In this document: positions 20,302 through 39,229 of the stretch, one piece after another
Layout of the letters: each line of letters opens with the position of its first letter
Numbering within the stretch: the first letter of the stretch is position 1
IMG/VR virus record: IMGVR_UViG_3300028920_000062
Span: 14,982 to 78,981 of that record
From: a virus
DNA: 64,000 bases
Strand: one strand, 5' to 3'
Position numbers and translations under genes: made by a program
Notes under the pieces: generated by a model
The model's database searches: none
Seen by the model: only the letters and a program-made list of their open reading frames with translations
What the model was told of the DNA's origin: nothing

Positions 20302-20946
20302 ATGGCTAGTCTTGCACGTTCATATAACAGCTTTTCTGGTGTTGACATCAAGGCTGTTCTTGCAAATAAGCCTATTGCAGAGATTCAGGCTATTTCTTAC
20401 AGTATTACTCGTGAGAAGGCCCCTCTGTATACGATGGGTTCCGCAGATCCTCGCTCCTTCTCAAGAGGCAAGCGTGGTATTGCAGGTACCCTCATCTTCC
20501 TAGTGTTCGATAGACATGCCATGCTCGGAGCGTTCGGAATTTATTCAGACAATCCAACTAAGTTTATGTCGGATGTTGATGACTTTAGACCGAACGTAAA
20601 CTTCACCGATCCAACCACTGTTCAGCCTTTGCAAACAGTAGCTGGCGATGAAGCTACTTCTGCTCTCATCGAGAGTCCCCTAACCGGTACTGTCGATGCT
20701 GACCAGACCGTTGTGGCCCCATGGTTCTCTGACCAAATCTTGCCATTTGATATTACTCTAGCTGCAGCGAACGAGTATGGCTCATTCGCCGTGATGAGAA
20801 TCTACGGTGTTGAGCTTTTGAATGAAGGTTACGGTGTATCGATTGACGATATCGTCTCTGAGATGCAACACACCTACATTGCTCGTACGCTAGTTGGATG
20901 GCATCCTGTGGTTAGTCCTAAGACTGACCAATTGTTCCAAACATAA
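20302..20946 (+). CDS. Major tail tube protein
   Basis: Directly after the sheath with a strong RBS and followed by a terminator. SFSGVDI...QAISYSITREKAP...RGKRGIAGTLIF...PFDIT...YGVE. Confidence 0.8.
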   Translation: MASLARSYNSFSGVDIKAVLANKPIAEIQAISYSITREKAPLYTMGSADPRSFSRGKRGIAGTLIFLVFDRHAMLGAFGIYSDNPTKFMSDVDDFRPNVNFTDPTTVQPLQTVAGDEATSALIESPLTGTVDADQTVVAPWFSDQILPFDITLAAANEYGSFAVMRIYGVELLNEGYGVSIDDIVSEMQHTYIARTLVGWHPVVSPKTDQLFQT

Positions 20947-20956
20947 TAATAAGAAC

Positions 20957-20983
20957 GGGGAGGAGCAATCCTCCCCTTCTTTT
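20957..20983 (+). terminator. Rho-independent terminator after tail tube
   Basis: GGGGAGGA-GCAA-TCCTCCCC followed by TTCTTTT. Confidence 0.85.
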
Positions 20984-20994
20984 AAGGAGATAAG

Positions 20995-22248
20995 ATGGGT
21001 CAAGGACGTGTTTACAGCGGCAATGCTAAACCTCAAGAAGCTACATACAGCCAGGATAGACCTGGGACAAACACGTCTGATGTAACGACTACCCTTGACC
21101 TGAATCCGGTCAATACCACGCCAGCTCAACCGATCGCCGACCTCCCTGTCGGACCAGGTAATATCAATTGGCTGGGAAGCAGTTATTCTGGCGCTGATAT
21201 TAAGGCCGTTGTACACACATATAACAATGTTGGCGGACAGTTAGCTGCATTACGTGACCTCAAAATGCAAAAGATAGCCGCTGATGCTACTTCGAAAATG
21301 CTAGGCAACTATATTAATAAGGGGGCCAAAAGCTTTATACAGGCCAAAATAGCAAATGCTTCAAACCCCGATTTTACTTACGATAAGCAGGTAAACACTT
21401 GGCTTGCTATCGGTCTAGGAACGCCAGAAGGTTCTATACGTGGAGATAACAACTGGATTGCAGTCGAGGCAGATCTTGATCTTCCCGGCACTCTTCAGGC
21501 GAAGACGACAGCTCTACACTATCTATATCTAGTTAACACTTCTAGAAGCATTGATCCCGTTATCCAGGCAATGATAATTGAAAAACAAGGTATAGATTCT
21601 TTCTTAGATAGTCTTGAGAAAAAGATTGCTTTTCTAAATATGTACCAAAATGAGGCAACCAATACTGTTGTTCTTGGTACACTACAAACTGTTTCTGTCC
21701 AGACCCACCGAGAGAAGTTCGGAGTCAGAGCTCTGGGAAGAAGCTATGTAAAGGGCTATACTCGAGGACCGCGTACTATTGCCGGGTCTATGGTATTTAC
21801 TGTTTTTAATGAACATGCCCTTGGTCAGCTCATCCGAGCAATAGGAGACCCTGCATTAGTTGGTGAGAGCAAGTTAGATACTAATCTCAGTACTCTCATC
21901 CCAGACCAGCTTCCTCCGTTGGATATGACCCTAGTCTATGCAAATGAATATGGTGCTCTTTCTCGTCAGAGCATCTATGGTATAGAGTTTGTAAATGATG
22001 GCCAAACAATGTCCATTGAAGATCTTTTTACAGAAGAGGTCATGAACTTTGTTGCTCGAGATGTGGATATTATGACTTCAGTTGGTAGGCGTAAACTCTC
22101 TCAGGCTGAACGAGGCCTATGGACCACAGATGAAGGTAAGCCGCTAGAAGGAACTCAGCTGCTTAGGAAGACTCTTTTTGGTGGTGGAAGCGCATATAAG
22201 GACTATCTGGTTAGACTTGGCGTAAGAAGAAGCTTCAGGGGTAGGTAA
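20995..22248 (+). CDS. Tail tube paralogue (tube initiator / baseplate-proximal ring) with insertion
   Basis: SYSGADIKAV...[~150 aa insert]...LQTVSVQTHREK...RGPRTIAGSMVF...PPLDMT..ANEYG...YGIEF matches the major tube motifs. Confidence 0.7.
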   Translation: MGQGRVYSGNAKPQEATYSQDRPGTNTSDVTTTLDLNPVNTTPAQPIADLPVGPGNINWLGSSYSGADIKAVVHTYNNVGGQLAALRDLKMQKIAADATSKMLGNYINKGAKSFIQAKIANASNPDFTYDKQVNTWLAIGLGTPEGSIRGDNNWIAVEADLDLPGTLQAKTTALHYLYLVNTSRSIDPVIQAMIIEKQGIDSFLDSLEKKIAFLNMYQNEATNTVVLGTLQTVSVQTHREKFGVRALGRSYVKGYTRGPRTIAGSMVFTVFNEHALGQLIRAIGDPALVGESKLDTNLSTLIPDQLPPLDMTLVYANEYGALSRQSIYGIEFVNDGQTMSIEDLFTEEVMNFVARDVDIMTSVGRRKLSQAERGLWTTDEGKPLEGTQLLRKTLFGGGSAYKDYLVRLGVRRSFRGR

Positions 22249-23123
22249 TGGCAAACGAAGCAAGAATTATCCGCGAGGGAGTCTATAACAACGACTATTT
22301 CTCTGGCGCACAAGTTGCTATCTATATCGGAGATGTCCTTGTTGACGAGGTTACTTCCATTAGTCTGGCGGTAGCTCAGAGCAAGGCCCCTCTCTATGGA
22401 TATGCCTCTATGCTTTTTGATGGAGTTTCAAGAGGAAATGTTATCGTTGAAGGTGAGTTCTCTATTAACTTCAAAGAAGCTGGATATCTTTGGCTAATTC
22501 TTAATCGCTACCGTGCAATGGTTAAAGCTCAGAATGCCGGGATATTCCTTAACGAAAACTTGAGTCCCTTCTATCGAGGGAAGGGAACTGGAGAGTATAC
22601 TCTAGAAAAGACTATTGAGCAATTGACCAATGGAAGTGTTCCTCTTAGCAAGAAATATCTAAATCAGATTAACGAGATAGCTGCAAGGGCTGCTCGAGAA
22701 GATGGGATTAAAAGTATTGGTCTTGGTCCTCAAGTTTCTCAAGGACGGAAGTTGTTGAATACCCAAGCCGGTTTGGCCGGATATTCTAGTGGGCAAAGAG
22801 CTACTGGTAGTACTGGGGACGCTGAGTCCGTATTTGAAATTTTCGAGAACTATGTTTGGGGGAAAAACTCAGGTGGGGGCAGCAGCCAGGCTCTGGAGGC
22901 CTTGGGGATTAATGATGTCGCCGCTAATCGTCGTGCCGACGAACCTGCCCTAAATCCATTTGACATTTATATAGCCTTTGGAGACTATGTAGATGACGAT
23001 CGAATCCATCATACTGTTCAGAGAATCTCTGACGTTCATCTGACAGGTCAATCAAAACAGATAGTTATTGACGGTCAGCCTATACAAGAAGCATATAGCT
23101 TCTTTGCCAGAGATTTGATATAA
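22248..23123 (+). CDS. Third tail tube paralogue
   Basis: YFSGAQV...KAPLYGY...RGNVIVEGEFSINF...PFDIYI...YSFFARD. Confidence 0.65.
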   Translation: MANEARIIREGVYNNDYFSGAQVAIYIGDVLVDEVTSISLAVAQSKAPLYGYASMLFDGVSRGNVIVEGEFSINFKEAGYLWLILNRYRAMVKAQNAGIFLNENLSPFYRGKGTGEYTLEKTIEQLTNGSVPLSKKYLNQINEIAARAAREDGIKSIGLGPQVSQGRKLLNTQAGLAGYSSGQRATGSTGDAESVFEIFENYVWGKNSGGGSSQALEALGINDVAANRRADEPALNPFDIYIAFGDYVDDDRIHHTVQRISDVHLTGQSKQIVIDGQPIQEAYSFFARDLI

Positions 23124-24551: not shown

Positions 24552-27500
24552 GTGCCATATCCATTTACAGCCCAATATGGAGAGGGTGGCTTTGGTCTTG
24601 GGCCAGAGCATGGCAGGCGCTATTACGGCCCTTCTCTTACTCCTCCGCAAGACCAACCTCCGCTCTGGACCTCTGAAAGCCCAAGAGATTTTTACCAAGA
24701 TACTTATGGCTCAAGCGGATTCTTGTATGCGGGAATCGGCGCGGCAAGTTTAACTGCTCTTGGTCACCTTCCGGTAAATTTCTCAACAGGTGTACGGCCA
24801 GGTCCATGGAAGGGTATTCCACCACGAGCGTGGGCCCCCGGGCGCATGTTCGATTGGTATGCAGCTGCAGCTCGTACAGTAGAAGAATATTCTCCTGCTA
24901 AGATCTTTCGCACATTTCAGATATCTCCATTCCTGTCTCAGTTTGAGACTCCTGTCAGACAAGGTTTTACGATTACTCCTGCTCAGCTGGAAGGGAACTT
25001 TGTACAACAACAATACCTTGCTAACCTCATTGGTCCCGGTCGTGCTGGCCCTGATGGTGGGAGTGTATTGGGTAGAGTTGCCCGTGAGGGTGTTAGGCTC
25101 GAGGGCGGTAAGCTCTATTTTGCTAAGAGTGGTGAACTTGCTCTAGAGCATGCCAGCGCTATGCGTGTTGTCCCTGAGGCGCATAGTCGTCTGGGGGCTA
25201 TGTGGGCTCGTATAGTCGGTCTATCCGATACAGAAGCCACAGACCTTGCTCGTTGGTTCTCTAGGGCTCATCCAGACCCTGCAGACATCACAGTACAGAA
25301 CCCTCTGGTTGGAGGTATGCCAACCCAAATCATTGGCGCTCGCAGTAGAGCAGATTTTGTTTGGAAAAGCGCTCGTGCTTGGGGTGGGGAATTTATTGAT
25401 CGATTCAATAGACTGCTAGAAGCTCCTTTCTCTATGGAGCCGTTCGAAACGGTATTCGGTGGGTTTCAGAAGTTTGTTAAGAGGAAGACTGCAGAGCTTG
25501 GTTTTAAAGGAGGAGATGGGTATACCTTACAGCTCGCTGTCGGGCGTGGAACCGGTCTGCGAATGCTTGGGAGCCTTGGCCTTAAGTATGGGGCTATCGT
25601 TCCTGCTGCCGCAATGGGGTACAAGACCCTAGATTGGCTAGCCAAAGAGTCTGAAACACTCGATGACACCATCTTTGAAGAAGGTCTAACTTATGCTGGA
25701 GCAACTGTTGCTGTAAAGGCAAACCTTCTTGCTTCTCAAGTTGCCTACGGATTAGGGCTTAACAAATATCGCGAGCTTCAGGAAGAAATAGCTCCAGGTA
25801 GCACAAGTTTACAAAAGCTTGCCGCCTTCCCTCTAATGGGAGGCTTGGCAGGCGTTGGAGTAGCATACGGGATTAAGATAGGAGCTCCTCCAGGTCTTCT
25901 TTCTGCTCTCCCAGAAGGAGGCATGCTTTCTCGCCAAATCTTTTTGGGAGAATCTGCTGGGGTTGCTCGAGAAGTAGTCGAAGAGCAAATCAAGCAGTTC
26001 GGTAAAGGCGAGGGTGTATTTGGTTTTGTTGGCAGGCTTGGAAAGAAGCTTACCACAGAAGGGGGAATTTATTCTCAAGAGGGATTCCTAGGCAATGTCT
26101 GGCGTCGTATCGCCGAGCCTCATGTCAGCAGAACGGGAGATCTTAGCTTTAAGTTATTGGGCAAAGTCGGTCCTGCTAAATTATTTGGTGTAGCTGGGGC
26201 TCTGGCTGGAACCGCACTCATTGCTCCGTTCCTTCCTGGAGCTCTGATTCCCGAGAAGTCTCCAGATGAACTCAGAGCTCTTTATAGTGGTGAGACAGAG
26301 GTCCCTATTCGTCGCGGCAGATGGTGGGAATTTGGCCGTTCTCCATATGAAGGTCGTCGAGTTTCATATTTTAGGCCTCATTGGTATGCGCGAATGCGGA
26401 TGGATGCTCGAGACGAGAGTATCTGGGGCGACGAGGCATCAGAATTAAGCCCGGTAGAGAAGTGGCTAAAGTCAGAGTTTACCTATGATTTGGAAAAGAA
26501 GCACTACCGCAGTCGCCCATATCCTGTTTCTGGACTGCCATTTGAAGATGTTCCTTTTATTGGTCCTTTTCTAGCTGGAACCATTGGACGACTGATTAAG
26601 CCTCCTGTTCTTATGCACACAGAAGAGTGGATGGGAGAAAAGGGTGTATTAGCTGAACCTCCTAGGTTTGGCCAGCGTGTTGCTACCGAAGTGGGCGAAA
26701 CCCCGGGTGGTATGCCTGAAACTCCATATGGAATTAGAGGCATTGTTGGCGAACAGATCTACAGATTACAAGAACTCGGCGGTCTCTATGGCTTCAGCAT
26801 GATGACCATGCAGGAGAAGCTCAAGGGTACCCCCGATATCTTTGATCAGTTCAAACAACTCGAGTCATCCCGCAGAATGTATGGCTTTGAACGTCAGTAC
26901 TGGGACCTTGAGCTTGGCGGTATGCTTGGCACTACTGAGGCGTTCCGTCGTTTATACCCTCACAGAAGACGTCAAATCCCGCTGTACAACCCGATTAGAA
27001 ACTTGATGCCTGAATGGCTTCCAGGCCCCGGAGACAAATCTCCGGACTTCCTCCATGGTGACCCCTTTACAAAGGTCGCAGAGGGCGAGCTACGGCTTCC
27101 AGGACGTGGTTATGCGCAGCGTTTTCCAGAGCTCGAAGATGTTAGTCCAGAAGACTATCCGCTCATTCATCGCTTCAAAATCCTCGCTGATGTAGCTCCA
27201 TACTCCTCTCGCTTTGGGGAACACCTCTCTATGGTGAGAAGAGCTCGAAAGCAAGCTGCTTGGGATAGCACCCAAGAAAAGATCTACAATCAGACCTTAG
27301 AGCAGCTAAAGGAAAGGAAGAAAGGTCAGGAGTTTGAGGAATATAAGTACCTCAATAATATGGGGGAAATTTTTGGAGAGGATATTTATTGGTCTGGAGA
27401 GGATTCTGCTGGTCTTCTCACTCAATTGAATAAACTTAAGGCTCAGAAGCAGGAAGACCAAGGAGGAATATTTACTAGACTTTTTGGTGGATATTGGGAG

Positions 27501-28598
27501 CTGCTTTCTCACAATGCCGAGACTGCTTTAGACCAGGTAACTCCAGTCTCTCCTGGATCTAAGCTAGTTCATGTTAGAAGCCCAATTGAAGCGTATGAAC
27601 GCTTGCAACTATATGGGACTGAGAATGCATTCTGGAATCATCCTGTTAGAGACTTTTTTAGACCCACTTTTTGGCTGGGAGCTCGAGCAGCAGGTTATGA
27701 GGATGTCCCCGAACATATAGAAATGAGGAGAGAGATTGAGGCTACTTTCGACCGCCTGAAGTATGTCAAATTTGCTAGGCTATCTAATATAGCCAGACTA
27801 GAGAAGGACTGGACTGCCGTAAAGGAGTTTGAGGCCAAGAAGGACCAGACTATGTTTGGTCTTGATCCATATACTCGTAATTATACAAGTATTTTCAGGG
27901 CCTTGCCGCGCCGGGACCGTGATTACTTCAATGCGTTCTCAGAAGCTGAAACCGAGGAAGAGCGTCATCGGATTCTTGAGATAGTACCAGAAAACGAAAG
28001 ATCTCTGTATGTTGCCAGATGGAAAATGATGTTTGCCAACGAGGTGCGGGCGGCAAAAAAGGCAGGCGTGCTTAGTGAGAAACAAATTGAACAGGCAGAT
28101 GTTAGGTTGGCACAAATTTATGATGATGCAGACAGAGAAGGACTACCTGCCAGCAAAGACCTCTTAGCAGAGTACCTTGAGACTAGGTATCCCGGTGAAA
28201 GCTATGCGGATTGGTATCGCAGAGTCAAGCTTCTTGGAGGGCTAGAGTCTATTCCTGGACCTGACTGGGTAGGCTGGCATCCCTCTGTAGATCTTGAGGA
28301 TATTAAGCTCAAGATGGTTATGAACCTTGGTGAAGATATGCACGATTATGACTTGTGGCCATCTCGAGCTCAAACACTTATGAACAAGCCATATATAAAT
28401 AATGAGGCCGTTACCGCGTTAACTGAGCCTGAAGAGCTTAGCAGATCGGAAATACATGATAGAATTAACAAATTGCTGTTAGTTGAGAAGATGCAACCTA
28501 GCGTTTTTAGTCGAGCAGTGTATGGACCAGAAACCGATAACTCTGTTGATTTTGAGATTGTTCAGGAACGCCCAGCTCGTAAAGGAAGTTTGTATTAA
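24552..28598 (+). CDS. Tape-measure-like protein, part 1 (putative)
   Basis: 1348 aa directly after the chaperones, with several Gly/Ala-rich hydrophobic segments (e.g. LFGVAGALAGTALIAPFLPG). Confidence 0.55.
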   Translation: MPYPFTAQYGEGGFGLGPEHGRRYYGPSLTPPQDQPPLWTSESPRDFYQDTYGSSGFLYAGIGAASLTALGHLPVNFSTGVRPGPWKGIPPRAWAPGRMFDWYAAAARTVEEYSPAKIFRTFQISPFLSQFETPVRQGFTITPAQLEGNFVQQQYLANLIGPGRAGPDGGSVLGRVAREGVRLEGGKLYFAKSGELALEHASAMRVVPEAHSRLGAMWARIVGLSDTEATDLARWFSRAHPDPADITVQNPLVGGMPTQIIGARSRADFVWKSARAWGGEFIDRFNRLLEAPFSMEPFETVFGGFQKFVKRKTAELGFKGGDGYTLQLAVGRGTGLRMLGSLGLKYGAIVPAAAMGYKTLDWLAKESETLDDTIFEEGLTYAGATVAVKANLLASQVAYGLGLNKYRELQEEIAPGSTSLQKLAAFPLMGGLAGVGVAYGIKIGAPPGLLSALPEGGMLSRQIFLGESAGVAREVVEEQIKQFGKGEGVFGFVGRLGKKLTTEGGIYSQEGFLGNVWRRIAEPHVSRTGDLSFKLLGKVGPAKLFGVAGALAGTALIAPFLPGALIPEKSPDELRALYSGETEVPIRRGRWWEFGRSPYEGRRVSYFRPHWYARMRMDARDESIWGDEASELSPVEKWLKSEFTYDLEKKHYRSRPYPVSGLPFEDVPFIGPFLAGTIGRLIKPPVLMHTEEWMGEKGVLAEPPRFGQRVATEVGETPGGMPETPYGIRGIVGEQIYRLQELGGLYGFSMMTMQEKLKGTPDIFDQFKQLESSRRMYGFERQYWDLELGGMLGTTEAFRRLYPHRRRQIPLYNPIRNLMPEWLPGPGDKSPDFLHGDPFTKVAEGELRLPGRGYAQRFPELEDVSPEDYPLIHRFKILADVAPYSSRFGEHLSMVRRARKQAAWDSTQEKIYNQTLEQLKERKKGQEFEEYKYLNNMGEIFGEDIYWSGEDSAGLLTQLNKLKAQKQEDQGGIFTRLFGGYWELLSHNAETALDQVTPVSPGSKLVHVRSPIEAYERLQLYGTENAFWNHPVRDFFRPTFWLGARAAGYEDVPEHIEMRREIEATFDRLKYVKFARLSNIARLEKDWTAVKEFEAKKDQTMFGLDPYTRNYTSIFRALPRRDRDYFNAFSEAETEEERHRILEIVPENERSLYVARWKMMFANEVRAAKKAGVLSEKQIEQADVRLAQIYDDADREGLPASKDLLAEYLETRYPGESYADWYRRVKLLGGLESIPGPDWVGWHPSVDLEDIKLKMVMNLGEDMHDYDLWPSRAQTLMNKPYINNEAVTALTEPEELSRSEIHDRINKLLLVEKMQPSVFSRAVYGPETDNSVDFEIVQERPARKGSLY

Positions 28599-31500
28599 TG
28601 GCTAAGGATCCGAAGGAGTTTGAAAGAGGAGAGAGCTTCTTCAAGAAGGCTCTTATTGGTACTCCAGCTGCTGTTGGCGCGGGTATTGGTATTCGTAGAA
28701 TGGTCAAGGATCTTCAGGAAGCACAGGCGCGCGGCGCAGAGATTATGTATCGCAAGCCCCTGGCTTCTGTCGATGCTATAGCGCATGCAACTGGTATCTC
28801 TGAAGAGATGATTGGTCGCGCCACAGCTGCGCGGGAAGAACGCTTAGCTTTTATGTCTAGGAACTGGGATCGTTTCAAAACCCCTGAAGGTATGAGTGTC
28901 CTTAAGCGCTCGTGGCTAGACGCCATGCGTTTTGCCGATCCTATATCACAAACTAAGCTTTTGAGCTTTACGGAACGCGTTAACCTTAGAGGCATGACAG
29001 AACCCACTGATGTTTTTAACGCTATTCAGCGTACTCTAGAAGCAAATAATTCCTCTCTTATGGGAAGGGTATTTGAGCGTTTTGAGAGCAATGTTGTTGG
29101 ATTTGAGAGGCATGTTCTTGCTGGTCTAGATCCCATGGATTTGGGGACGCCTTTTCAGTTTCGACCTGAAAGGGTAGCGGGCTTAGACCTTTTAGACCTG
29201 CCTAATGAACTAGGGTACAGAGCATCTAAGATTGCAGCCAGTCTGGATGCTAATGTGGGGGTTACTAGATATACCCGATCAGACGTATTCGGAAAGCAGT
29301 CTCCAGAGGTTTTTAAACTGTCATTTAACCAAAAAGGACAGACTCTTGTAGACCTCATGGTTCCTGTTACTCAACGCGGAGCTTTTTTTGAAGGTGAAGC
29401 CTTAAGAAGTAAATATGTTTCTACCAGCGTTATCGTAGGGAATGCTGAGGGTGGCCCCAAACTGATGTCCAGGGAGGAATATCTTCTTAGGCAGTTTGAA
29501 AGAGAGATTGTTCCCCAGATCAAGTCAGGGCAACTAACAGAACCTTATGAAATTAATGCGGCTGTTAAGCAACTTAGAGCAGATATTCTGCATAAAATGG
29601 AGAATGTAAAAAATCTGCCTCCTGATTTAGAGGATGACGCAATTAAGGGATATCGTCTTAGCCGTAGTGAAGGCGTAGATATCAGGTGGGACCTTCCAGA
29701 AAGAGAACTAGAAGAACGAAGAAAAAAGATGTTACCTGGATACCATCCTACAACTCGACCAGCTACTCCTGAAGAAATTGCCTCTATAGCGAAACATCCT
29801 TCAATCGGAAAACTTTTTGGAGGTGTTTCTCCGGCAAATATCGCTGAAGGTCGCCGATCTTTTATGGACTGGAGTAAGATAGTTTCTGCTTCTCCTTTTG
29901 CCTATGATTGGGGTCGTCGCCCGGAACAGTTCTCAAGAGAGTTCGCCCTTAGCGAAGAAGCTGTTGCAGCAATTGAACGAGAGGGCTATAGGGAATCCGA
30001 TATATTTGCGACTGGAAGAATGCGAGACCTGTATAAGAAGGGAGGTCTTCCTCCACATCTTCGTGTTCTTTACCTTAATCCCGAGAAACATGCTTTGCTA
30101 ATGGAGCAGCTAGGTATTGGTCGCGGTGAAGGTCTTATGAGGGAGGGTTTAAGGGAACTCCTTGAGCAGCGTGTATTTAAGTCTACGAATATTGTAGGCA
30201 TGAATATGGAGACCTTGCAAAAAATTCAGGCTGGCGGGCAATTGCTAAAGGGACAGGTGCTTGGACAAATTGCTGAAACTGGTCTTCCTTTTGTAGTAGA
30301 AGATCCAGAATCTATTAAGGCAGCAGTAGGCCATTGGTCTGAAGGGGCAGGAGATTACGTCACTATTCATCAGGTAAACAGACATCGTCTTCTAAGTCAT
30401 GAGAAATGGTTTAATGACCTTAAGATGTTGGCTCGCTTTACAGACGAGGAAGTAATGCAAGATGCCGCATCTAGGGCAGGTGTGAGTCGCCGTCTAGTTG
30501 GAGAGGGCTTCGATGTATTAACTCAAGTAGGCAAAGAGATTGTTAGGGGTCAAGGATTCGATGTTATTGCTAGTACAGAAGACTTGACCAAGAATCCAGG
30601 TTTGCTAACTAAGCAGATTGTATCCGGAATCCACGACACTTTGTCAATTCGAGAACTCGAGTCTAGGGGTATTAACTTTGACTTTGCCACTCTGGGGGTT
30701 CGTCCGTCTCCCAAGATTGATAAATTTCTCGATCATCCCCTGACATTTCTTCGTATGTGGGACAGGATGTCTCAAACCCCAGAAGGTGCATTTGACCAGC
30801 AGGCATTTATTAAACGTGCCATGAAGTTCTCTGTTGAACATGCAGGTCTAAGTCCAGAGGAGTTTGGGTCAGCATTTGGTGTAATTCCAGAGGTTGAAAA
30901 GGAATGGCAGGCCCTTACATCACAAACGCTAGCTGGTGCTGGCCTCAGAGACGTTAGTATTAAAGAATATATAAAGGCCATGGAAGAGGGAACTGCAATA
31001 GGAAGAGCACAGCTTTTCTGGGGTGGTCCAGCCCGTCTTCGAGGTGCTGGCGGTTTAGGTTCTATTGAGCCTCGTCTTTTTGAAATGCTGTCTGGAGGAG
31101 TCTACGGAGAAACAGGGAAAGAACTTGCAAAAGAATTTGCAGAACGTGCTGTTGGGACAGATCCTCAAAAAAGAGCACTTAGCGAAGCACTTGCCACAAC
31201 AATGGCTTCTATAGGAGGTCAGATTAAACGAAAGAAAGGGGAGGCTATTTGGGATATCGCTGAGCAAAGTATAGCTGAAGATGATATTGCAAAACAATTT
31301 GAAACATTTCTAGAGAGTGGCGGTGGATGGATGCGGGCCAAAAAGGGAGCAAAAGAAGTTTTTGTTCCTGGGCTTGATAACCTTACTGCTATGCAACCTT
31401 TTACTACTGCTGGCGGAAAGGGAGTGCGCGGAGCAGTTCCGGATATTTTTTATAACATGCTTTATAAGGGAGCTGAGTTCGCCGAAGGATCCTTGGGGGA

Positions 31501-33196
31501 GAAGGCTTACGAGCGCCATATGAACGAGAGTTTAGCTGCTCTATGGAGGGAAGCAGCTCCCGCAGGAAAGGGCGGCGGCGCTTGGCAGCGTGGTAAAATT
31601 GCTGGTTCTAGATTCTTGGAAATTACCTCTATGGTTGATGGCCAGATGCCTGCACACGCAAACGAGGTGCTTGTGTCTACAGAGAAGATGAAAGATATGG
31701 TTAATGAGATGAGACAATTCATGCCTAAAGAAGAGTTTGAGAAGTTTGCTGCACAAGCTGAGACAGGCACGATGGAAGGCATAGTGGCTCGCCACCCATT
31801 TATTGGTCAGTATTCTGCTCAGCCTGTCACAATCAGAGCTATTAAAACTGCCAAGGGTACTAGCAAAAACATGATTGCTATTCAAGAAAGGGCTGCTCGA
31901 GTAACCTTTGGTTTTGCAGGAGAGAAGGCGCAAGAAAAGCTAATGCTGATGACCCCTCTTTTGGGTATGGCTGCTGATAAAGATGCTGATGAGGCTGCGC
32001 TTTTCTTGGTACGCTCTAAGAATGCAGACCGCCTGAAGGCGATGATGCAAGGAAAGGCCAACCAGTTTACTACTGCCTATGCACAACATCAAATGCGTCT
32101 TCAGCTCCTAAAGGCATCAAAAGCTGCAGGTGGAGCTGCCGGTTTGTCTCAGAGTGGCAAGATGGCAGCAGATGTTCTCAAATTGGGAGTTACTCAGTCT
32201 CATGTTCCTAAGCTGTCTGTAGAGCTCAGTATGGCAAGACAGGCTGTTGGTCATGCACTTACAGGCCAGACAGAGGCAGATGCTCGTTTCTTGTTGGAAT
32301 GGTTAGAGCAGAACCCAATTTCCGCAAAGCACATGAACGCCAGAGAGATTTCCGAGGGTGGATTAAGGCAGCTTGATACGATCACTAATGCGCTAAAAAA
32401 GAAAGATTCAGGTACTCTAATTGAAGAGATAAATAAGATTGTTAAGGATAATGAGATAGCCAGAAGGTTTCTTAAAGAAGACATTATGATCCAAGATGCC
32501 GTAATGGCTGATGACGGAACGAAGTTAAATATTAGCAAACGTTTGAAGGCGATTAATGTAGAGCAGACGGTCAGAAGCCTTATGGATGCGAGACATAAGT
32601 TTGAAAAGTCTGGCGAAGCTAAACTGGCTCGTATTATGGCAGGTAGAGGCCCTCGCATGAGGCCTGTACAGGATCTTCCTCGGTTTCTTAATGCCGTGCA
32701 ACAGACCGGAAACAAGGCCTTTTCTGGAGTTGCTAAAGGTATGAACACTGCAGCTAATCTTCTCCAGGCGGCTGGACGAACTGCTATTAAGCATCATAAG
32801 CCTATAGGCCTAGGATTTGCTGGCTCTATTGCTCTAGCTATGACTCTTTCTTCTCCCAAGGATACTATTGGACCAGGAGCTAATTTAGACCCAGGAGATG
32901 TTGATATGAACCAGGGGCAGGCTGCTGGAAAAATGAAGCCTGCAGATCTGATGCCACCACCTCAGGCTATGGGTAGTCCTCAGGCTCCTGGCATGATGCA
33001 TTCGCCTCGGGCAATGATTGGGCCTCCCGTTCAAAGCAATAGAACTAGGGTAGTAGCTAGAACTAATTATGCAATGAATACACAAAACTTAGCCTCGCGC
33101 ATCAACCAGATGACTAATAATAGAAGATCTGTTAATCTGAGCATCAGAGACAGAAGGTCTCCCGCTGACTTCTCTGGCGGAAATACGCTCTACTAA
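28598..33196 (+). CDS. Tape-measure-position protein containing a putative single-chain two-barrel (virion) RNA polymerase
   Basis: Ordered motifs HEKWFNDLK (30398-30424), RGKIAGSRF (31589-31615), ARHP (31787-31798) and MAADKDAD (31967-31990). Hydrophobic segments at both ends and a Pro-rich, TMP-like C-terminus. Confidence 0.6.
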   Translation: MAKDPKEFERGESFFKKALIGTPAAVGAGIGIRRMVKDLQEAQARGAEIMYRKPLASVDAIAHATGISEEMIGRATAAREERLAFMSRNWDRFKTPEGMSVLKRSWLDAMRFADPISQTKLLSFTERVNLRGMTEPTDVFNAIQRTLEANNSSLMGRVFERFESNVVGFERHVLAGLDPMDLGTPFQFRPERVAGLDLLDLPNELGYRASKIAASLDANVGVTRYTRSDVFGKQSPEVFKLSFNQKGQTLVDLMVPVTQRGAFFEGEALRSKYVSTSVIVGNAEGGPKLMSREEYLLRQFEREIVPQIKSGQLTEPYEINAAVKQLRADILHKMENVKNLPPDLEDDAIKGYRLSRSEGVDIRWDLPERELEERRKKMLPGYHPTTRPATPEEIASIAKHPSIGKLFGGVSPANIAEGRRSFMDWSKIVSASPFAYDWGRRPEQFSREFALSEEAVAAIEREGYRESDIFATGRMRDLYKKGGLPPHLRVLYLNPEKHALLMEQLGIGRGEGLMREGLRELLEQRVFKSTNIVGMNMETLQKIQAGGQLLKGQVLGQIAETGLPFVVEDPESIKAAVGHWSEGAGDYVTIHQVNRHRLLSHEKWFNDLKMLARFTDEEVMQDAASRAGVSRRLVGEGFDVLTQVGKEIVRGQGFDVIASTEDLTKNPGLLTKQIVSGIHDTLSIRELESRGINFDFATLGVRPSPKIDKFLDHPLTFLRMWDRMSQTPEGAFDQQAFIKRAMKFSVEHAGLSPEEFGSAFGVIPEVEKEWQALTSQTLAGAGLRDVSIKEYIKAMEEGTAIGRAQLFWGGPARLRGAGGLGSIEPRLFEMLSGGVYGETGKELAKEFAERAVGTDPQKRALSEALATTMASIGGQIKRKKGEAIWDIAEQSIAEDDIAKQFETFLESGGGWMRAKKGAKEVFVPGLDNLTAMQPFTTAGGKGVRGAVPDIFYNMLYKGAEFAEGSLGEKAYERHMNESLAALWREAAPAGKGGGAWQRGKIAGSRFLEITSMVDGQMPAHANEVLVSTEKMKDMVNEMRQFMPKEEFEKFAAQAETGTMEGIVARHPFIGQYSAQPVTIRAIKTAKGTSKNMIAIQERAARVTFGFAGEKAQEKLMLMTPLLGMAADKDADEAALFLVRSKNADRLKAMMQGKANQFTTAYAQHQMRLQLLKASKAAGGAAGLSQSGKMAADVLKLGVTQSHVPKLSVELSMARQAVGHALTGQTEADARFLLEWLEQNPISAKHMNAREISEGGLRQLDTITNALKKKDSGTLIEEINKIVKDNEIARRFLKEDIMIQDAVMADDGTKLNISKRLKAINVEQTVRSLMDARHKFEKSGEAKLARIMAGRGPRMRPVQDLPRFLNAVQQTGNKAFSGVAKGMNTAANLLQAAGRTAIKHHKPIGLGFAGSIALAMTLSSPKDTIGPGANLDPGDVDMNQGQAAGKMKPADLMPPPQAMGSPQAPGMMHSPRAMIGPPVQSNRTRVVARTNYAMNTQNLASRINQMTNNRRSVNLSIRDRRSPADFSGGNTLY

Positions 33197-33205
33197 TGAG
33201 GAACT

Positions 33206-36200
33206 ATGGCTACTGACACAGGGTATTTTCAGATCAACGACCTCATATTTCAGGTCCCACCGGAAGCAATTAAAGTCAATAGAAGGGCTGTGAACAATTA
33301 TTGGCAGACTCTACGTACACGTTCGTCCATCAAGCTATCTTCGGGGTACTCTATCTTAGACATTGAAGTGTCGATGAAAGTCATTGCTGAGGGTAACGAG
33401 CTAGAAAAGCTTTCTTGCCTTGTTGCTCAGTTGCGCGTAACTCCGTTTTGTTGGATAAAAAACCAGTATATTAGGAACACTGTCTTGGGTGGGCAGACTA
33501 AACAGGCCATGGTTCTTGCTCTCAAACAACTGGAGATACGCAAGTCAGCTGGAGAAGATACCAACATTATTGAAGTTTATATGCTTTTCTCTTGGTTTAA
33601 TTATCTGCCTTATATGAAGGACTGGCTTTATAAGGAAGATATTTTTGTTCCCAAACCCGTTGAAGATCCTCGCAAATCAAGGGCTTGGCGTATTATGTAT
33701 GCTGCCGAGAAGATGAGAGGGCCTTATCAGGTTCCTCCAAGTCTTTACTCTAATGCAGTTTTAGATCTGCGGCAGTTTATGACTGTTACCAAAAAGAAGT
33801 TTAAGCAACTTAAACAAGATGTAGCTTTTCTAAAAGAGTTTAGAGGACAAATAGAGGCATCTCTTCCAAAGAAAGGAACTTCTGAATTTCCCGGGGTAGT
33901 AGATAATATTATCCAGTCTCTTGTAAAAAGTGCAGGGAAAGAGAGAGTTCATCGTTCGTTATCCAGCGTTTTTGGGCATACGACAACTGCTGTAGGCGAA
34001 GTGGGAGTAGAAGAACTTCTCCATCTTATTGATGTCGATATTACTGCTAAAGGACAAGAGGTTGAATCCTATAACAAAGTATACGAAGCAACAACGCGGG
34101 GTTGGGAAGTTGCTAAATTAGCAGACGGAACGCCCATTGAGATTGTTGGTAAAGCTGATGCAACTATTGATGAGAAGAGTGATCTGTCTGGGGAAGATGA
34201 TCAGATATTGATGGAGTCTAATCGTGTTCTGAATTTTGAGAAGGCAGGACTTATTATTACCGGTGTCTCTGTTAGCTTTGAGAACATTCTCGCAACTATG
34301 CCAGTTATTGGGCATCCATATCCCTCTTTTCAGCACATAGGAAGCATAGATGCCGTAGTGACACTGTCTTTTGTTACGACTTCTGAGAATTCTATACAGG
34401 CAATTTCTAATTTTTATACAATCTGTCAAGATCAGTCTCGTAAGTTTAGGCAGGTTCCCGAGGGGATCAGGAACGTTGTTATCAGCAATGACATCGTTAA
34501 TATGTGCGGTCTTCATGAGTTTCTTATTGAGGATTTAAGACAGGGAACTATGCCTGGCCAGCCGGGGACCTATTATGGCGAACTCGTATTGGTCAATAAC
34601 CCGCTTGATGCCAAGACCAAGGAGGGTCTGGTGCTCTCTAGTGATTTTATTACAGACAATACTTTAAGACTAAAGGTTATAGAAATTTTAGACCAGTATG
34701 TAAAGTTTAATGATCAGGATATCAGAACAGATATAGATAATGAGACGTCAGAATTCGGGAAGTTCGTGGGTGTTGCTGATAAATCAATAGAAGTCTTGGT
34801 CCGCAGTCCATACGATCAGGTTAAGCCTGGGGGCTCTGGGAAGCATATAGCAACTAACCAGGGGGTCCAGCGTAAGGCTACTGTAATTAGCCCATATGGT
34901 GAAGGACTGTCCAAAAAGGGTTTTGAGGATTTTCCTGCTACTAATGCGTATTATATAGATAGTGAGAACAATAAGAGAATTAGTTCTGGTGGTTATTATT
35001 CGTTCAATAATACTTTTGATAATCGCCAGGCCGCTCTCAGGCATTTCGTTGTTCGCTATATGAATTCTTTAACCAAGGTGTTTTCTTCACTGTCATCTCT
35101 CTTCATCAAGGACTGGCAGGGACATAACCTTGGAATAACCAAAGGAATGGTTGACCATAATACCATTTCGCTTTTTACTTTGACAGATGATCAGGTACCC
35201 GGAATTGGCAGACTTCGCAAGGACTTAATTGCCACTGCAAGGAAATTCAGAAGAAGAGGAAAGTTTAACTTAAATCCGTCATCATCAACTGACACCGAAG
35301 GTATATCATCTCGAGGAGAAATGTATCAATTTCTTTTTGATTCTTGGAACGAAATGAAAGATCTTCCGCTTTCTGACCAGCGCCGAAAGCATTCGATAAT
35401 ACTTGAAAGATTAGACTTTTTTGCCGCAGAAGCCCTTAAGGAAAAGAAGTTCGGTGGTAACCCACATGCCATTAACAGTACCAGCTTTCTTCACTTTAGA
35501 GATGCTTTTATAGATAAGTATCTCAAAGACTTTAGGAAAGAGATATTGGATCTTACTCGAGATATTCAGAAGTCTCAGGTATTTGACTTAGATATTTTTC
35601 AGCCAGTTAAGGATCTTTATAAAGAGGCTGGTCTTCCCTCTAAGGGGAATAATTACCCGGACTTTCCTCTGACTCAGGTGATTGAGATTCTAAGACAACG
35701 AAGTGACTGGGATAAAATAAAGGCTAAGATCGAAGAGCGTAGAGATCTGGCTGGTCTTGCAGTATACAATGTTTCTCTTGAGGCTCTAATTAATCCTGAC
35801 TTCTATCTATATAATAAGACAACAGATTCTACTTCTGATCTAATTAGTCGTCAGCTTATTAATGAAGCTAAAGAGGCGATCAAATTAACACAAGGACAAT
35901 TACAGGTAGACGCCGAAGCTGACTGGGTTACCAATACATACAACAGACATATTATTGGGACTACTCTTGCAGAACGAATAACAAATGATGTTAAGAATGG
36001 AACCAGCAATAAAGACAGAGTTGAGGAAATTCGAGCACGGAGAAAAGAGCTGGAAGAGACAGGAAAAAATCCAGAGCTTATTAATTATCTAAATCAGCGC
36101 GACAGGCTTTTGGAAGAAGGAGTTTTCCACATCGATGATCTTTCTGGCCCGCCGCTAGGTAATGCAATTTCAGAAAATGTAACCGAAGAGGGAGCTCTCG

Positions 36201-39200
36201 GTATCTCAATTAAAGCTATTAATAATCTAAAAGATAAAGCAAATTTGACTATATCTGTTCGTGACGAACAGCAACTAGTTCCAGATCTAGAGCACTATGC
36301 TTTGGCTAAGCATCGCTTTGATATCTTGGGATCTCTCGATGAACAATCTGCGGCAGAATATAGGCCTCCACCTAATTTTGATCCAAACAAAGATCCTGTT
36401 TGGGCTTGGCCTACTTCTGAACCTGGGAATACAAGGATAACTCCAAATACCGGTTATTTTGGAAAGCCAAGAGAAAATATTGGTAAAGACAAAAATATAA
36501 CTACTGGTCGACACCTCGGGATAGATATTATTAGTAAATTTGGTAAGGAAAGAACTAGACAATTGTTTGTCCGCGCCGCTGCTGACGGCAAGATCATTGA
36601 AGTTTCTAATAATTATGAAATATATGGACATGAGTCGAAGTGGAGAGAGGGTCCTGCAGACTCTTGTGTCTATATCAAGGTGCAGCATGCCAACGGGTGG
36701 GTTACTTCCTATAAACATTTGCAGTGGGAACCTACAATTAAGAAATATTCTGATCTTTTCCATGGTCGTCTTGCAGGACAAGAAATTTGGGTCAGACAAG
36801 GAACAGTGCTAGGTAAAGTTGGAACTACTGGTCCTTCAACTGGGCCTCATCTTCATTTTGCAATGATAAAGACAAAGGGAAATCCGCCTGCTGGGGTAAA
36901 CACCATAAATCACAAGAGAGGAATATATGTCGATCCAAACCAAATGCTTTCTGCTGGAGAGTTTGTTTCTCAAGGTCCTGTTTATGGAGTTGACCCTAAT
37001 AACGAATCTTTGTTTACTAAAAGTGTAGAACAATTTGACAAGGAAATGCAAAGTGGACAAGGCTATAGCCTCATGCGAGCCTATCCTACCTTTCGCTTGT
37101 ATTTTATTGAATCTGACCTTGAAGAACGCAAGATCTTTGGGTTCGATGACTTCTTCTCTTATAGTGCTGTACAGGATATCCAGGTTGTTCGGAGCAGAAA
37201 GATTGCTGCCGACCTAATGGTTATTAGCCTAACAAATACTTCTGGTGTGCTTACCAATAGAAAATTTAGGGGACAGGGTCGTGATAACCAGCATAGGGAT
37301 TTTCAGGGGAAGATAGCCAAAGAGAATGTCAAAGATCTCTCTGCCAGAAATACAATTAGAGAAAACCCAATTGCTTCTCTTATGGTTCAGCCAGGCATAC
37401 AGGTACAATTAAGGTTGGGATATCACTCTAGCCCAGATGAGCTAGAGCGTGTTTTTAATGGTGTTATTACTGATGTAGATATGTCAGAAGACGAAGATAT
37501 CGTTAATATTACATGTCAGAGCTTTGGTATCGAATTAACACAGAAGGTCTATGGTGAAGCTAAGAACTATGGTGGATGGCTCAAAGGATCTGGGAAAACT
37601 TCTGAAATCCTTGAAGATCTTATGTCTCAGCCAGAGATGGTTCACTTTGGGCGGTGGAATGCAGGAGAGCCATATAATGGCGCTTATGGTCTACTTCAAA
37701 CTCGTTTTCAATTTCAACCGACCCCTCAAGACGATAACCTCTTTCCTCCAACCGGAAAAAAGGGATTCTATAGTTTGTTCGATAGTACCCCAAAATACAT
37801 AATGTATAACACTACCGTGTGGGATACTTTTCAGGAAATGACTTTGCGTCATCCCGCATATATCACCTATCCAGTTCCTTATGACGGTAGAGAAGGTCCT
37901 CGTATGACTATGTTTTTCGGGGTTCCAAATCAATTATATTTTGCTCGAGATCCCACTTTGCGCGAAAAGGAAGCTATGGGCAGTATTAAGAATCTGGCTA
38001 CAAAAACAAATTCTATCATTGATGAAGTAAAGGATGGTCAGAAGTCGAATAAGGATATCTCAAAAAGCGCAATAGGAGCTGTAGCTGGGATTGGAACCCT
38101 AGCTCTTGCCCCCGCCTTGTTGCCTCTTGCTTCTCTTGGAATCCCTTTGTTAGCTGCTGGCGGAAAAGATGATCGCTTGAGAGAAATCTGGATTAACAGG
38201 TCTCTTCTTAGATATGCCAAAGATAGAGGCTTTATTAAGCCATTTAGAAATTATCACGTACTTACCAGCACCATGCATATCCTGAAGAACTCGATCTCTA
38301 GCAGCAGCTGGAATACATTTAATACTGTTACTTTGAATTACGAGGATGACGCAGCTGAGGTTGAAAAAGAGAAGAAGAGTTTAGTCTTTAATGAACGCGA
38401 AACGATGTCTATGAAGTGTGATGCGGGGCTTCCTGATGAAGAGATCAGAGAGCTCATGACGTCTTGGCCTAATTGCATTCAGGACGAAATGGCAAAGAGA
38501 TATTCGGTTGCTTTACTTTGGAACTCTTTAAAAGAAGGATATTCTGGGAGTCTTGTAACTATTGGAAACCCTTCAATTAAACCTCATGACGTATGCTATG
38601 TGTTTGACGAATATAACGATATGGTGGGTCCTATTGAGGTTGAACAAGTAGTCCATAGGTTTTCTCAGAATACTGGATTTGTTACAGAAATTACTCCCGA
38701 TATGTGTATCCATATCAATCAGGCAAGTACAATGGCTGTATCTGATGCAGTGGGGCTGGCAGTAGAGGGAGCAATGCAAGAAATGGGTCTGCAGCCTTTG
38801 GCTAGTGTTATTGGAGCTTCACGTGGCATTAAGCGTACTGCCGGCTTAGCAAGGATTGGTGGGTTAGACGCTGAAACGGGTATACTGGCTAGTGAAATGG
38901 CTGGCGCTGCAGCAAGGACTGCTATGAGTATAGCTCTTGCTCCGTTTTCTGGACTTCTCTATGTTCCTAAACTAACGGGTGCGTTTATTATGCGTAAGTT
39001 AATTACTCGGTCACAGACTGCGCATCCGTTCCGGTATAGTCCTTTAGTGAAACAAGGCAAGCCAATGATTGGAGGATTCCCTTCTAGGTATGTGGATGGT
39101 AGCTTTATCCAGGGTATTGATAGATATTTCAAGGAGAATGCGGAGTCTATCCCGCTGTATCTAGACCACTTGTATGATAAAATCGTGGTCAATGACTGGA

Positions 39201-39229
39201 TTCATGTCCGAGGGAAGATAGGAGGATAG
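33206..39229 (+). CDS. Baseplate hub / tail-associated lysin with internal M23 metallopeptidase
   Basis: HLGID (36512-36526), AAADGKI, SYKHL, VGTTGPSTGPHLHF (HxH at 36848-36856). C-terminal hub-like LRLGY..VFNGVITDV and IGNPSIKPHD..VEQVVHRFS..GFVTEITP. Confidence 0.8.
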   Translation: MATDTGYFQINDLIFQVPPEAIKVNRRAVNNYWQTLRTRSSIKLSSGYSILDIEVSMKVIAEGNELEKLSCLVAQLRVTPFCWIKNQYIRNTVLGGQTKQAMVLALKQLEIRKSAGEDTNIIEVYMLFSWFNYLPYMKDWLYKEDIFVPKPVEDPRKSRAWRIMYAAEKMRGPYQVPPSLYSNAVLDLRQFMTVTKKKFKQLKQDVAFLKEFRGQIEASLPKKGTSEFPGVVDNIIQSLVKSAGKERVHRSLSSVFGHTTTAVGEVGVEELLHLIDVDITAKGQEVESYNKVYEATTRGWEVAKLADGTPIEIVGKADATIDEKSDLSGEDDQILMESNRVLNFEKAGLIITGVSVSFENILATMPVIGHPYPSFQHIGSIDAVVTLSFVTTSENSIQAISNFYTICQDQSRKFRQVPEGIRNVVISNDIVNMCGLHEFLIEDLRQGTMPGQPGTYYGELVLVNNPLDAKTKEGLVLSSDFITDNTLRLKVIEILDQYVKFNDQDIRTDIDNETSEFGKFVGVADKSIEVLVRSPYDQVKPGGSGKHIATNQGVQRKATVISPYGEGLSKKGFEDFPATNAYYIDSENNKRISSGGYYSFNNTFDNRQAALRHFVVRYMNSLTKVFSSLSSLFIKDWQGHNLGITKGMVDHNTISLFTLTDDQVPGIGRLRKDLIATARKFRRRGKFNLNPSSSTDTEGISSRGEMYQFLFDSWNEMKDLPLSDQRRKHSIILERLDFFAAEALKEKKFGGNPHAINSTSFLHFRDAFIDKYLKDFRKEILDLTRDIQKSQVFDLDIFQPVKDLYKEAGLPSKGNNYPDFPLTQVIEILRQRSDWDKIKAKIEERRDLAGLAVYNVSLEALINPDFYLYNKTTDSTSDLISRQLINEAKEAIKLTQGQLQVDAEADWVTNTYNRHIIGTTLAERITNDVKNGTSNKDRVEEIRARRKELEETGKNPELINYLNQRDRLLEEGVFHIDDLSGPPLGNAISENVTEEGALGISIKAINNLKDKANLTISVRDEQQLVPDLEHYALAKHRFDILGSLDEQSAAEYRPPPNFDPNKDPVWAWPTSEPGNTRITPNTGYFGKPRENIGKDKNITTGRHLGIDIISKFGKERTRQLFVRAAADGKIIEVSNNYEIYGHESKWREGPADSCVYIKVQHANGWVTSYKHLQWEPTIKKYSDLFHGRLAGQEIWVRQGTVLGKVGTTGPSTGPHLHFAMIKTKGNPPAGVNTINHKRGIYVDPNQMLSAGEFVSQGPVYGVDPNNESLFTKSVEQFDKEMQSGQGYSLMRAYPTFRLYFIESDLEERKIFGFDDFFSYSAVQDIQVVRSRKIAADLMVISLTNTSGVLTNRKFRGQGRDNQHRDFQGKIAKENVKDLSARNTIRENPIASLMVQPGIQVQLRLGYHSSPDELERVFNGVITDVDMSEDEDIVNITCQSFGIELTQKVYGEAKNYGGWLKGSGKTSEILEDLMSQPEMVHFGRWNAGEPYNGAYGLLQTRFQFQPTPQDDNLFPPTGKKGFYSLFDSTPKYIMYNTTVWDTFQEMTLRHPAYITYPVPYDGREGPRMTMFFGVPNQLYFARDPTLREKEAMGSIKNLATKTNSIIDEVKDGQKSNKDISKSAIGAVAGIGTLALAPALLPLASLGIPLLAAGGKDDRLREIWINRSLLRYAKDRGFIKPFRNYHVLTSTMHILKNSISSSSWNTFNTVTLNYEDDAAEVEKEKKSLVFNERETMSMKCDAGLPDEEIRELMTSWPNCIQDEMAKRYSVALLWNSLKEGYSGSLVTIGNPSIKPHDVCYVFDEYNDMVGPIEVEQVVHRFSQNTGFVTEITPDMCIHINQASTMAVSDAVGLAVEGAMQEMGLQPLASVIGASRGIKRTAGLARIGGLDAETGILASEMAGAAARTAMSIALAPFSGLLYVPKLTGAFIMRKLITRSQTAHPFRYSPLVKQGKPMIGGFPSRYVDGSFIQGIDRYFKENAESIPLYLDHLYDKIVVNDWIHVRGKIGG

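Follow-up and report, generated by a model that had tools for sequence, protein, structure and literature searches.

What does a contractile-tailed phage keep in the tape-measure position of its tail operon, and could it be an RNA polymerase (RNAP) that travels with the virion? The question is raised by P0001, a protein of 1532 amino acids (aa) encoded by the open reading frame (ORF) at 28598-33196 (+) in the phage tail module of IMG/VR record IMGVR_UViG_3300028920_000062. This viral contig is 78,981 bp long (about 41% complete according to CheckV), and its 3' part is the 64-kb stretch analysed here (the window). Among the sequencing runs, DNA of this uncultured phage is present in three marine sediment metagenomes and no RNA run is listed. 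Phage two-barrel RNAPs are central to the escape from host transcription and to ideas on the origin of RNAP, and the link of such an enzyme to a tape measure has so far come from one case, gp96 of phage P23-45, which has a non-contractile tail. As set out below, P0001 is quite likely to be a catalytically competent single-chain two-barrel RNAP that is packaged in the virion and starts phage transcription.

Active-site motifs of P0001

A sequence-only reading of the window had pointed to a series of polymerase-like motifs. All the strings that it named were found in the claimed order and at the claimed residues of P0001, i.e. LGIGRGEGLM (aa 505-514), RLLSHEKWFNDLKML (597-611), GFDVI (653-657), WQRGKIAGSRFL (996-1007), GIVARHPFIG (1061-1070) and LLGMAADKDADEA (1121-1133). 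Its Escherichia coli references were also recovered on NC_000913, namely GDK(1065)MAGRHGNK(1073) in rpoB and NADFDGD at 458-464 in rpoC. In the two-barrel superfamily the DxDxD triad lies in the beta'-type barrel (PMC7824862; PMC10770324), and two basic residues (lysines) come from the beta-type barrel (PMC7824862). The corresponding elements of P0001 are the following.

30404-30424 (+): K603...K609, family motif KxFGxxK; candidate active-site lysine pair of the beta-type barrel, both at least 90% conserved
31589-31618 (+): RGKxxGSRFL, aa 998-1007; positional counterpart of beta' GKRVDYSGRSVI, on a predicted strand (model 585-591)
31790-31798 (+): R1065-H-P1067, family form RHPxIG; counterpart of beta' NRAP
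31976-31990 (+): D1127-K-D1129-A-D1131; candidate Mg-binding triad, invariant in 126 sequences

Taken alone, the motifs are weak evidence. DxDxD occurs in 12% of shuffled P0001 sequences, and [RK]xP followed by DxDxD 20-100 aa further on occurs in 4.7% of them. It is because they are conserved in homologues that they go beyond chance. In an alignment of 126 family members, which share 19-60% identity with the window protein, D1127, D1129, D1131, P1067, R826, P924, G556 and K1244 are invariant, and conservation is 90% or higher at K603, K609, K665, R998, G1003, S1004 and R1065. This bears out the expectation that RxP, DxDxD, the arginine and both lysines would be kept. The triad of the family reads GDxD[AG]D with DKDAD as its commonest form, which supports the idea that DKDAD is a variant of the motif; DLDAD, DTDGD, DFDAD, DVDGD and DYDGD are found as well. 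R1065-H-P1067 stands 59 aa upstream of the first Asp of the triad and passes the filter [RK]xPx{20,100}DxDxD (PMC10770324 Supplementary Data 4). K603 and K609 are spaced by 6 residues, against 8 for K1065 and K1073 of E. coli beta, and are located on or beside adjacent predicted strands (model 182-187 and 191-196). The equation of GFDVI with DIVL of the beta subunit held in part: it agrees with the order of the predicted strands, but the string itself is poorly conserved (20-40% per column). LGIGRGEGLM is kept in the family solely as GxxEGxxL.

Predicted structure of P0001

An AlphaFold2 model of aa 420-1320 was made from a 53-row alignment and reached a mean predicted local distance difference test (pLDDT) score of 89.7 and a predicted template modelling (pTM) score of 0.89. 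When this core model was compared with the PDB by Foldseek, each of the top 50 matches was an RNAP beta'/Rpo chain (E 7e-5 to 6e-4, probability 0.9-1.0), including bacterial beta', the non-virion RNAP (nvRNAP) of phiKZ and poxvirus Rpo132. The two barrels on one chain that the sequence-only reading had foreseen are present in the model as double-psi beta-barrels (DPBB), one in a beta-type and one in a beta'-type module, and the two modules form one active site, which is a defining trait of the two-barrel superfamily. The conserved residues are placed as in the multisubunit enzymes, in the same order of secondary-structure elements. In the first barrel K603 is on a strand and K609 in the loop after it; the chain continues with a further strand, an excursion, the strand FDVIA and a helix that contains the invariant Q673. 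In the second barrel GSRFL forms a strand, another strand ends in R1065-H-P, and one more strand and a short helix then lead to the Asp loop and the last strand. The Asp triad sits in the loop between this short helix and the last strand (model 701-718), and an extra hairpin of about 27 residues is inserted between RxP and the triad. Over its whole length the protein was divided as follows.

28598-33196 (+): whole ORF, open, 1532 aa; single-chain two-barrel RNAP-like protein
28598-28762 (+): N-terminal ~55 aa; low confidence (pLDDT 46-69 in model m872313d93b06)
within 28598-28762 (+): N-terminal Gly/Ala-rich stretch, aa 14-30; mildly hydrophobic (hydropathy 1.09)
28763-29128 (+): helical bundle, aa 56-177; no informative structural match
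29198-29917 (+): aa 201-440; alpha/beta region with weak resemblance to the N-terminal part of beta-type subunits
29867-31051 (+): aa 424-818; beta-type module with the first barrel
31217-32464 (+): aa 874-1289; beta'/Rpb1-type module with the second barrel
32294-32332 (+): LEWLEQxPISxKH, aa 1233-1245; best conserved block after the barrels, K1244 invariant and H1245 at least 90% conserved
32750-33193 (+): C-terminal tail, aa ~1385-1532; homologous to the C-terminal end of gp146 of Bacillus phage 0305phi8-36
32804-32854 (+): hydrophobic segment of this tail, aa 1403-1419 (hydropathy 1.54)

The C-terminal tail also contains a Pro/Gly/Met-rich stretch and, after it, a terminal VNxNxRDxRS motif. 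In the model P0001 thus has the fold, the DxDxD and the RxP of the two-barrel superfamily, and it can be predicted with high confidence to fold as a two-barrel polymerase whose active site is intact. We infer that it is most likely a DNA-dependent RNAP, both in its activity and in its use of a DNA template. A different chemistry at the two-barrel site, such as RNA-dependent RNA synthesis (as by QDE-1 and RDR2), the making of replication primers or DNA synthesis (as by archaeal PolD), is quite improbable.

The best viral structural matches in BFVD were A0A8S5SD80_1 (TMq 0.43), which comes from an uncultured siphovirus and is labelled 'minor tail protein', and the unnamed A0A7R7G2L5_2 (E 1.4e-9). 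These predicted structures suggest that further unannotated tail-associated two-barrel polymerases may occur in other phage groups.

The P0001 family and known polymerases

P0001 showed no match in Pfam (E<=0.01) or PHROGs, nor to PDB sequences, which were searched by phmmer with the single sequence and also with a profile. PF05183 (YonO/eukaryotic RNA-dependent RNA polymerase, RdRP) matched neither P0001 nor anything in genomes G000-G004, while the Bacillus subtilis positive control was matched. PF00562 (Rpb2_6) and PF00623 (Rpb1_2) did not match P0001 either, with controls matched in 14/14 genomes. No sequence similarity to P23-45 gp96 or gp64 was detectable, which speaks against close kinship with these two. 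As far as sequence can tell, P0001 is outside every family compared (PF05183, PF00562, PF00623 and the gp96/gp64 chains).

A word-seeded search yielded 11 metagenomic homologues, and 8 P0001 loci were found in IMG/VR on contigs of up to 191 kb. When a profile of the core (aa 440-1300) was used in an exhaustive search, at least 252 metagenomic cluster representatives (50% identity level) were recovered at E<=1e-3. With few exceptions these representatives measure 1400-1600 aa, and 182 of them reached E<=1e-30. A search for fused forms of more than 2682 aa found none, which is weak evidence. One genome per GTDB species was also searched, and this search was blank, so no prophage copies were seen. 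New is a family of at least 252 clusters that is not recognized by any profile library, and its numerous sequences can be used to compare minimal two-barrel polymerases.

The nearest precedent is P23-45 gp96, a virion RNAP fused to the tape measure (PDB 8h2m/8h2n), which was proposed to transcribe early genes on the entering DNA (PMC10770324). The siphovirus protein gp96 (5002 aa) carries the RNAP N-terminally, ahead of a very long tape measure, in a phage with a non-contractile tail, whereas P0001 combines its 1532 aa with a tape-measure-like C-terminal tail of just ~150-240 aa in a phage with a sheath. The triad is DFDGD in gp96 and DKDAD in P0001. Besides, P23-45 has a second paralogue (its nvRNAP), whereas none was found for P0001 in complete relatives. 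The multisubunit RNAPs (bacterial enzymes and the nvRNAPs of phiKZ and AR9) consist of two to five polypeptides, whereas P0001 is a single one, much smaller than their beta/beta' and with the 27-aa extra hairpin between RxP and triad. Single-chain two-barrel polymerases are known in QDE-1, YonO and gp66 of phi14:2; unlike P0001, gp66 belongs to a short-tailed crAss-like phage and is encoded outside any tape-measure slot. What P0001 adds is a contractile-tailed host virus of ~190 kb and a minimal architecture of a polymerase plus a short C-terminal tail.

Position of P0001 in the tail module

The window is a structural module in which all genes are on one strand. Its main landmarks are listed here.

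117-2882 (+): portal
6518-7747 (+): major capsid protein
18386-20287 (+): tail sheath (phrog_16991 5e-80; tblastn to the sheaths of 0305phi8-36, ME3 and Moorella MTATph1)
20302-20946 (+): tail tube
20995-22248 and 22248-23123 (+): tube paralogues, labelled 'major head protein' by PHROGs (phrog_9206)
24552-28598 (+): upstream neighbour of P0001, 1348 aa; orthologue of ME3 gp035 and 0305phi8-36 gp145 (blastp 3e-68 and 3e-22)
33206-39229 (+): downstream neighbour, 2007 aa; baseplate hub/peptidoglycan hydrolase with M23 peptidase domain (PF01551 5.5e-11, phrog_20474 1e-69)
40588-41811 (+): baseplate wedge

The sheath gene shows that the tail of this phage is contractile, as the sequence-only reading had it. 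By sheath and hub its nearest cultured relatives are Bacillus phage 0305phi8-36, Acinetobacter phage ME3, Moorella phage MTATph1 and some Bacillus jumbo phages, and its tail block corresponds to gp140-gp147 of 0305phi8-36 and to gp030-gp037 of ME3. The genes that flank P0001 have true orthologues in these two phages (blastp 3e-68 to 9e-15), the 2007-aa hub being the orthologue of ME3 gp037 and 0305phi8-36 gp147 (tblastn, blastp). P0001 is situated between the genes at the tail chaperone position (153 and 316 aa) and the hub, and the 1348-aa gene intervenes, as gp145 does in 0305phi8-36. The order tube-417-291-153-316-1348-P0001-2007 is preserved in 7/7 related IMG/VR loci, and within this block P0001 is the most diverged gene (28-36% identity, against 40-68% for its neighbours). 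The stop codon of the 1348-aa gene overlaps the start codon of P0001 (TAATG), which amounts to translational coupling, and the next gene starts 9 nt past the P0001 stop and is preceded by GAGGAA. Promoter-like and terminator-like sites showed no enrichment inside the tail block.

A C-terminal tail shared with a virion protein

In 0305phi8-36 the corresponding genes are gp145, gp146 ('hypothetical tape measure protein') and the hub gp147, with gp146 in the slot that P0001 occupies. The notes of the 0305phi8-36 record state that mass spectrometry detected both gp145 and gp146 in virions. It was chiefly the length of gp146 and the 486-nm tail that led Hardies et al. to regard it as the tape measure, and they reported that its last ~60 residues alone align with positional homologues (PMC2147016). 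A hidden Markov model (HMM) of the C-terminus, made from the last 330 aa of 125 family members, was run on a database of 464 sequences and matched gp146 at residues ~2397-2540 (E 5.4e-8, 27.6 bits). In this match the hydrophobic segments fall together, and so do the terminal motifs, with VNxNxRDxRSSL paired with NFNANISDDRSTF. This homology indicates that P0001 shares the C-terminal tail of a virion protein. The two proteins differ in length (2537 aa for gp146, 1532 for P0001), and the core of gp146 has no detectable similarity to the polymerase core (noise level in hhalign and hmmsearch).

Because P0001 is expressed with the tail genes, stands in the tape-measure slot and keeps a gp146-type C-terminal tail, it is most likely a part of the virion. 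Its place among the tail genes, the structure of the operon and the homology to the gp146 C-terminus together make it probable that P0001 is packaged, injected and so delivered to the host. That it resides specifically in the tail lumen, as the tape measure or part of it, is a more tentative proposal, and we would not count on it.

If P0001 were instead an active RNAP made inside the cell for middle or late genes, like YonO of SPbeta or P23-45 gp64, it would be no virion component at all. YonO-type enzymes are indeed non-virion (PMC7824862), 0305phi8-36 has the YonO-type orf99 in its early region (PMC2147016), and with one RNAP-like gene per complete relative the enzyme might also have to serve later stages. 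However, the P0001 gene is in the middle of a tail operon and shows translational coupling to genes whose orthologues encode virion proteins confirmed by mass spectrometry, its product ends in a tail homologous to that of gp146, and an enzyme made solely with late structural proteins cannot begin the transcription programme. A purely intracellular role is therefore judged to be improbable.

The YonO-like polymerase reported for 0305phi8-36 by Iyer et al. (ABS83659.1) was considered as a candidate for gp146 itself and rejected, gp146 being ABS83704.1. The RdRP-like polymerase gene of that phage is orf99 (Hardies et al.), a separate RdRP/YonO-like gene in the early region (PMC2147016).

The tape-measure slot also raises the question whether P0001 is a structural tail or ejection protein, i.e. 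a tape measure that retains an ancestral polymerase fold and is catalytically dead. Its position, the lack of DxDxD in its positional counterpart gp146 and its rank as the fastest-evolving gene of the block would all suit such a protein. Yet the Asp triad and P1067 do not vary in any of 126 sequences at ~20-60% identity, and conservation is 90% or more for the two Lys, R1065 and G1003-S1004, which would not be expected of a dead enzyme. The model, moreover, is compact, confident and globular. This reading is accordingly highly improbable.

The counterpart in phage ME3

In the cultured myovirus vB_AbaM_ME3 the same slot, between gp035 and gp037, holds gp036, a hypothetical protein of 1603 aa. 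It was equated with BFVD entry A0A172Q021 by its length, the entry consisting of two pieces of 801 and 802 residues. Foldseek matched the predicted structure of gp036 to the P0001 model (E 1.9e-6, probability 1.0), and the gp036 sequence carries KxFxxGxK, R-E-P and GGDHDQD in the same order as P0001. Sequence similarity between the two is at noise level (hhalign, hmmsearch), the C-terminal HMM finds no match in gp036, and the protein is not annotated as a polymerase. In searchable full-text papers, with subscription literature outside this scope, neither ME3 gp036 nor the P0001 family is described as a polymerase. Homologous C-termini and synteny tie the P0001 family to the cultured 0305phi8-36 and ME3.

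A second ME3 protein, BFVD A0A172Q0S6 (798 aa), matches the polymerase model as well (Foldseek E 2.3e-5, 652 columns). By analogy with P23-45, it could be a non-virion partner polymerase.

Proposed role in infection

Several observations weigh against a virion-packaged polymerase in this slot. The gp146 sequence (L016:16624-24237) contains no DxDxD, so the shared C-terminus is no proof that the slot always holds a polymerase. Among cultured and deposited phages, tblastn of P0001 against 50,697 phage records (INPHARED) was blank. Alignment of the family profile with E. coli rpoC and rpoB by hhalign was insignificant (probability <3%); merely as an illustration, the rpoC alignment placed RGKxxGSRFL over GKRVDYSGR and GMAADKDAD over YNADFDGD. 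In the models aa 56-1320 form compact domains (pTM 0.75-0.89), whereas an ordinary tape measure is extended. K-mer counts in 72 intergenic regions of G001, a complete relative, revealed just short AT-rich words and no conserved candidate promoter motif. In favour of the polymerase, the complete relatives G001 (191,113 bp) and G002 (188,653 bp), which have direct terminal repeats, contain one P0001-family gene each, located in G001 inside the structural block, and no second RNAP was detected in them by PF00940 (T7-type), PF00623, PF00562, PF05183 or the unfiltered family HMM. This last result is weak on absence since the Pfam RNAP profiles also miss P0001.

With a packaged polymerase as the preferred reading, the following course of events can be proposed. 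P0001 would be made together with the tail proteins and incorporated in the virion via its tape-measure-type C-terminal tail, probably at or inside the tail or baseplate. Delivered at infection, it would transcribe the first phage genes without the host RNAP. In the active site the beta-like module (aa ~200-820) would supply K603 and K609, contacting substrate phosphates as in the superfamily (PMC7824862). The beta'-like module (aa ~870-1290) would contribute D1127/D1129/D1131 for the catalytic Mg ions, as well as R1065-H-P and RGKxxGSR.

If delivery takes place through the contractile tail, how does a polymerase core of ~100 kDa pass or fit the tail tube? Compact P0001 might be kept partly unfolded, be positioned at the hub, or travel in the head instead. 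With gp036, ME3 provides a culturable system for this question of tail delivery. A bolder and, in our view, rather unlikely extension covers the whole lineage (0305phi8-36, ME3 and the ~190-kb marine-sediment phages). Its tape-measure-slot protein would be a foldable RNAP, stored metastable in the tail, anchored by its C-terminus and expelled on sheath contraction, and would then refold at the membrane or in the cytoplasm to transcribe the entering DNA. For 0305phi8-36 this extension implies loss or replacement of the catalytic core, with orf99 as compensation.

Other features of the module

The 1348-aa gene lies directly after the genes at the chaperone position and its product is clearly hydrophobic at aa 423-439 and 550-566 (hydropathy 1.6-1.8), while one such segment of the hub protein reaches 1.99. 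The 1348-aa protein may in fact be the partner of the polymerase that inserts into the membrane or resembles a tape measure. An ESM Atlas search with it gave scores <=0.77 and was uninformative.

The label 'major head protein' on the genes at 20995-22248 and 22248-23123 is also attached to gp140/gp141 of 0305phi8-36, yet in the record notes these are tail tube and tube paralogue. It is probably a propagated mis-annotation. Just after the tube gene, at 20957-20976, there is a strong GC-rich, terminator-like hairpin, the sole convincing one in the 18-38 kb block. Upstream of the window, an ORF of 2418 aa (L014:106-7362) was found just upstream of the large terminase; its sole match is an endonuclease-like region at aa 1141-1235 (phrog_452, E 2.5e-8).

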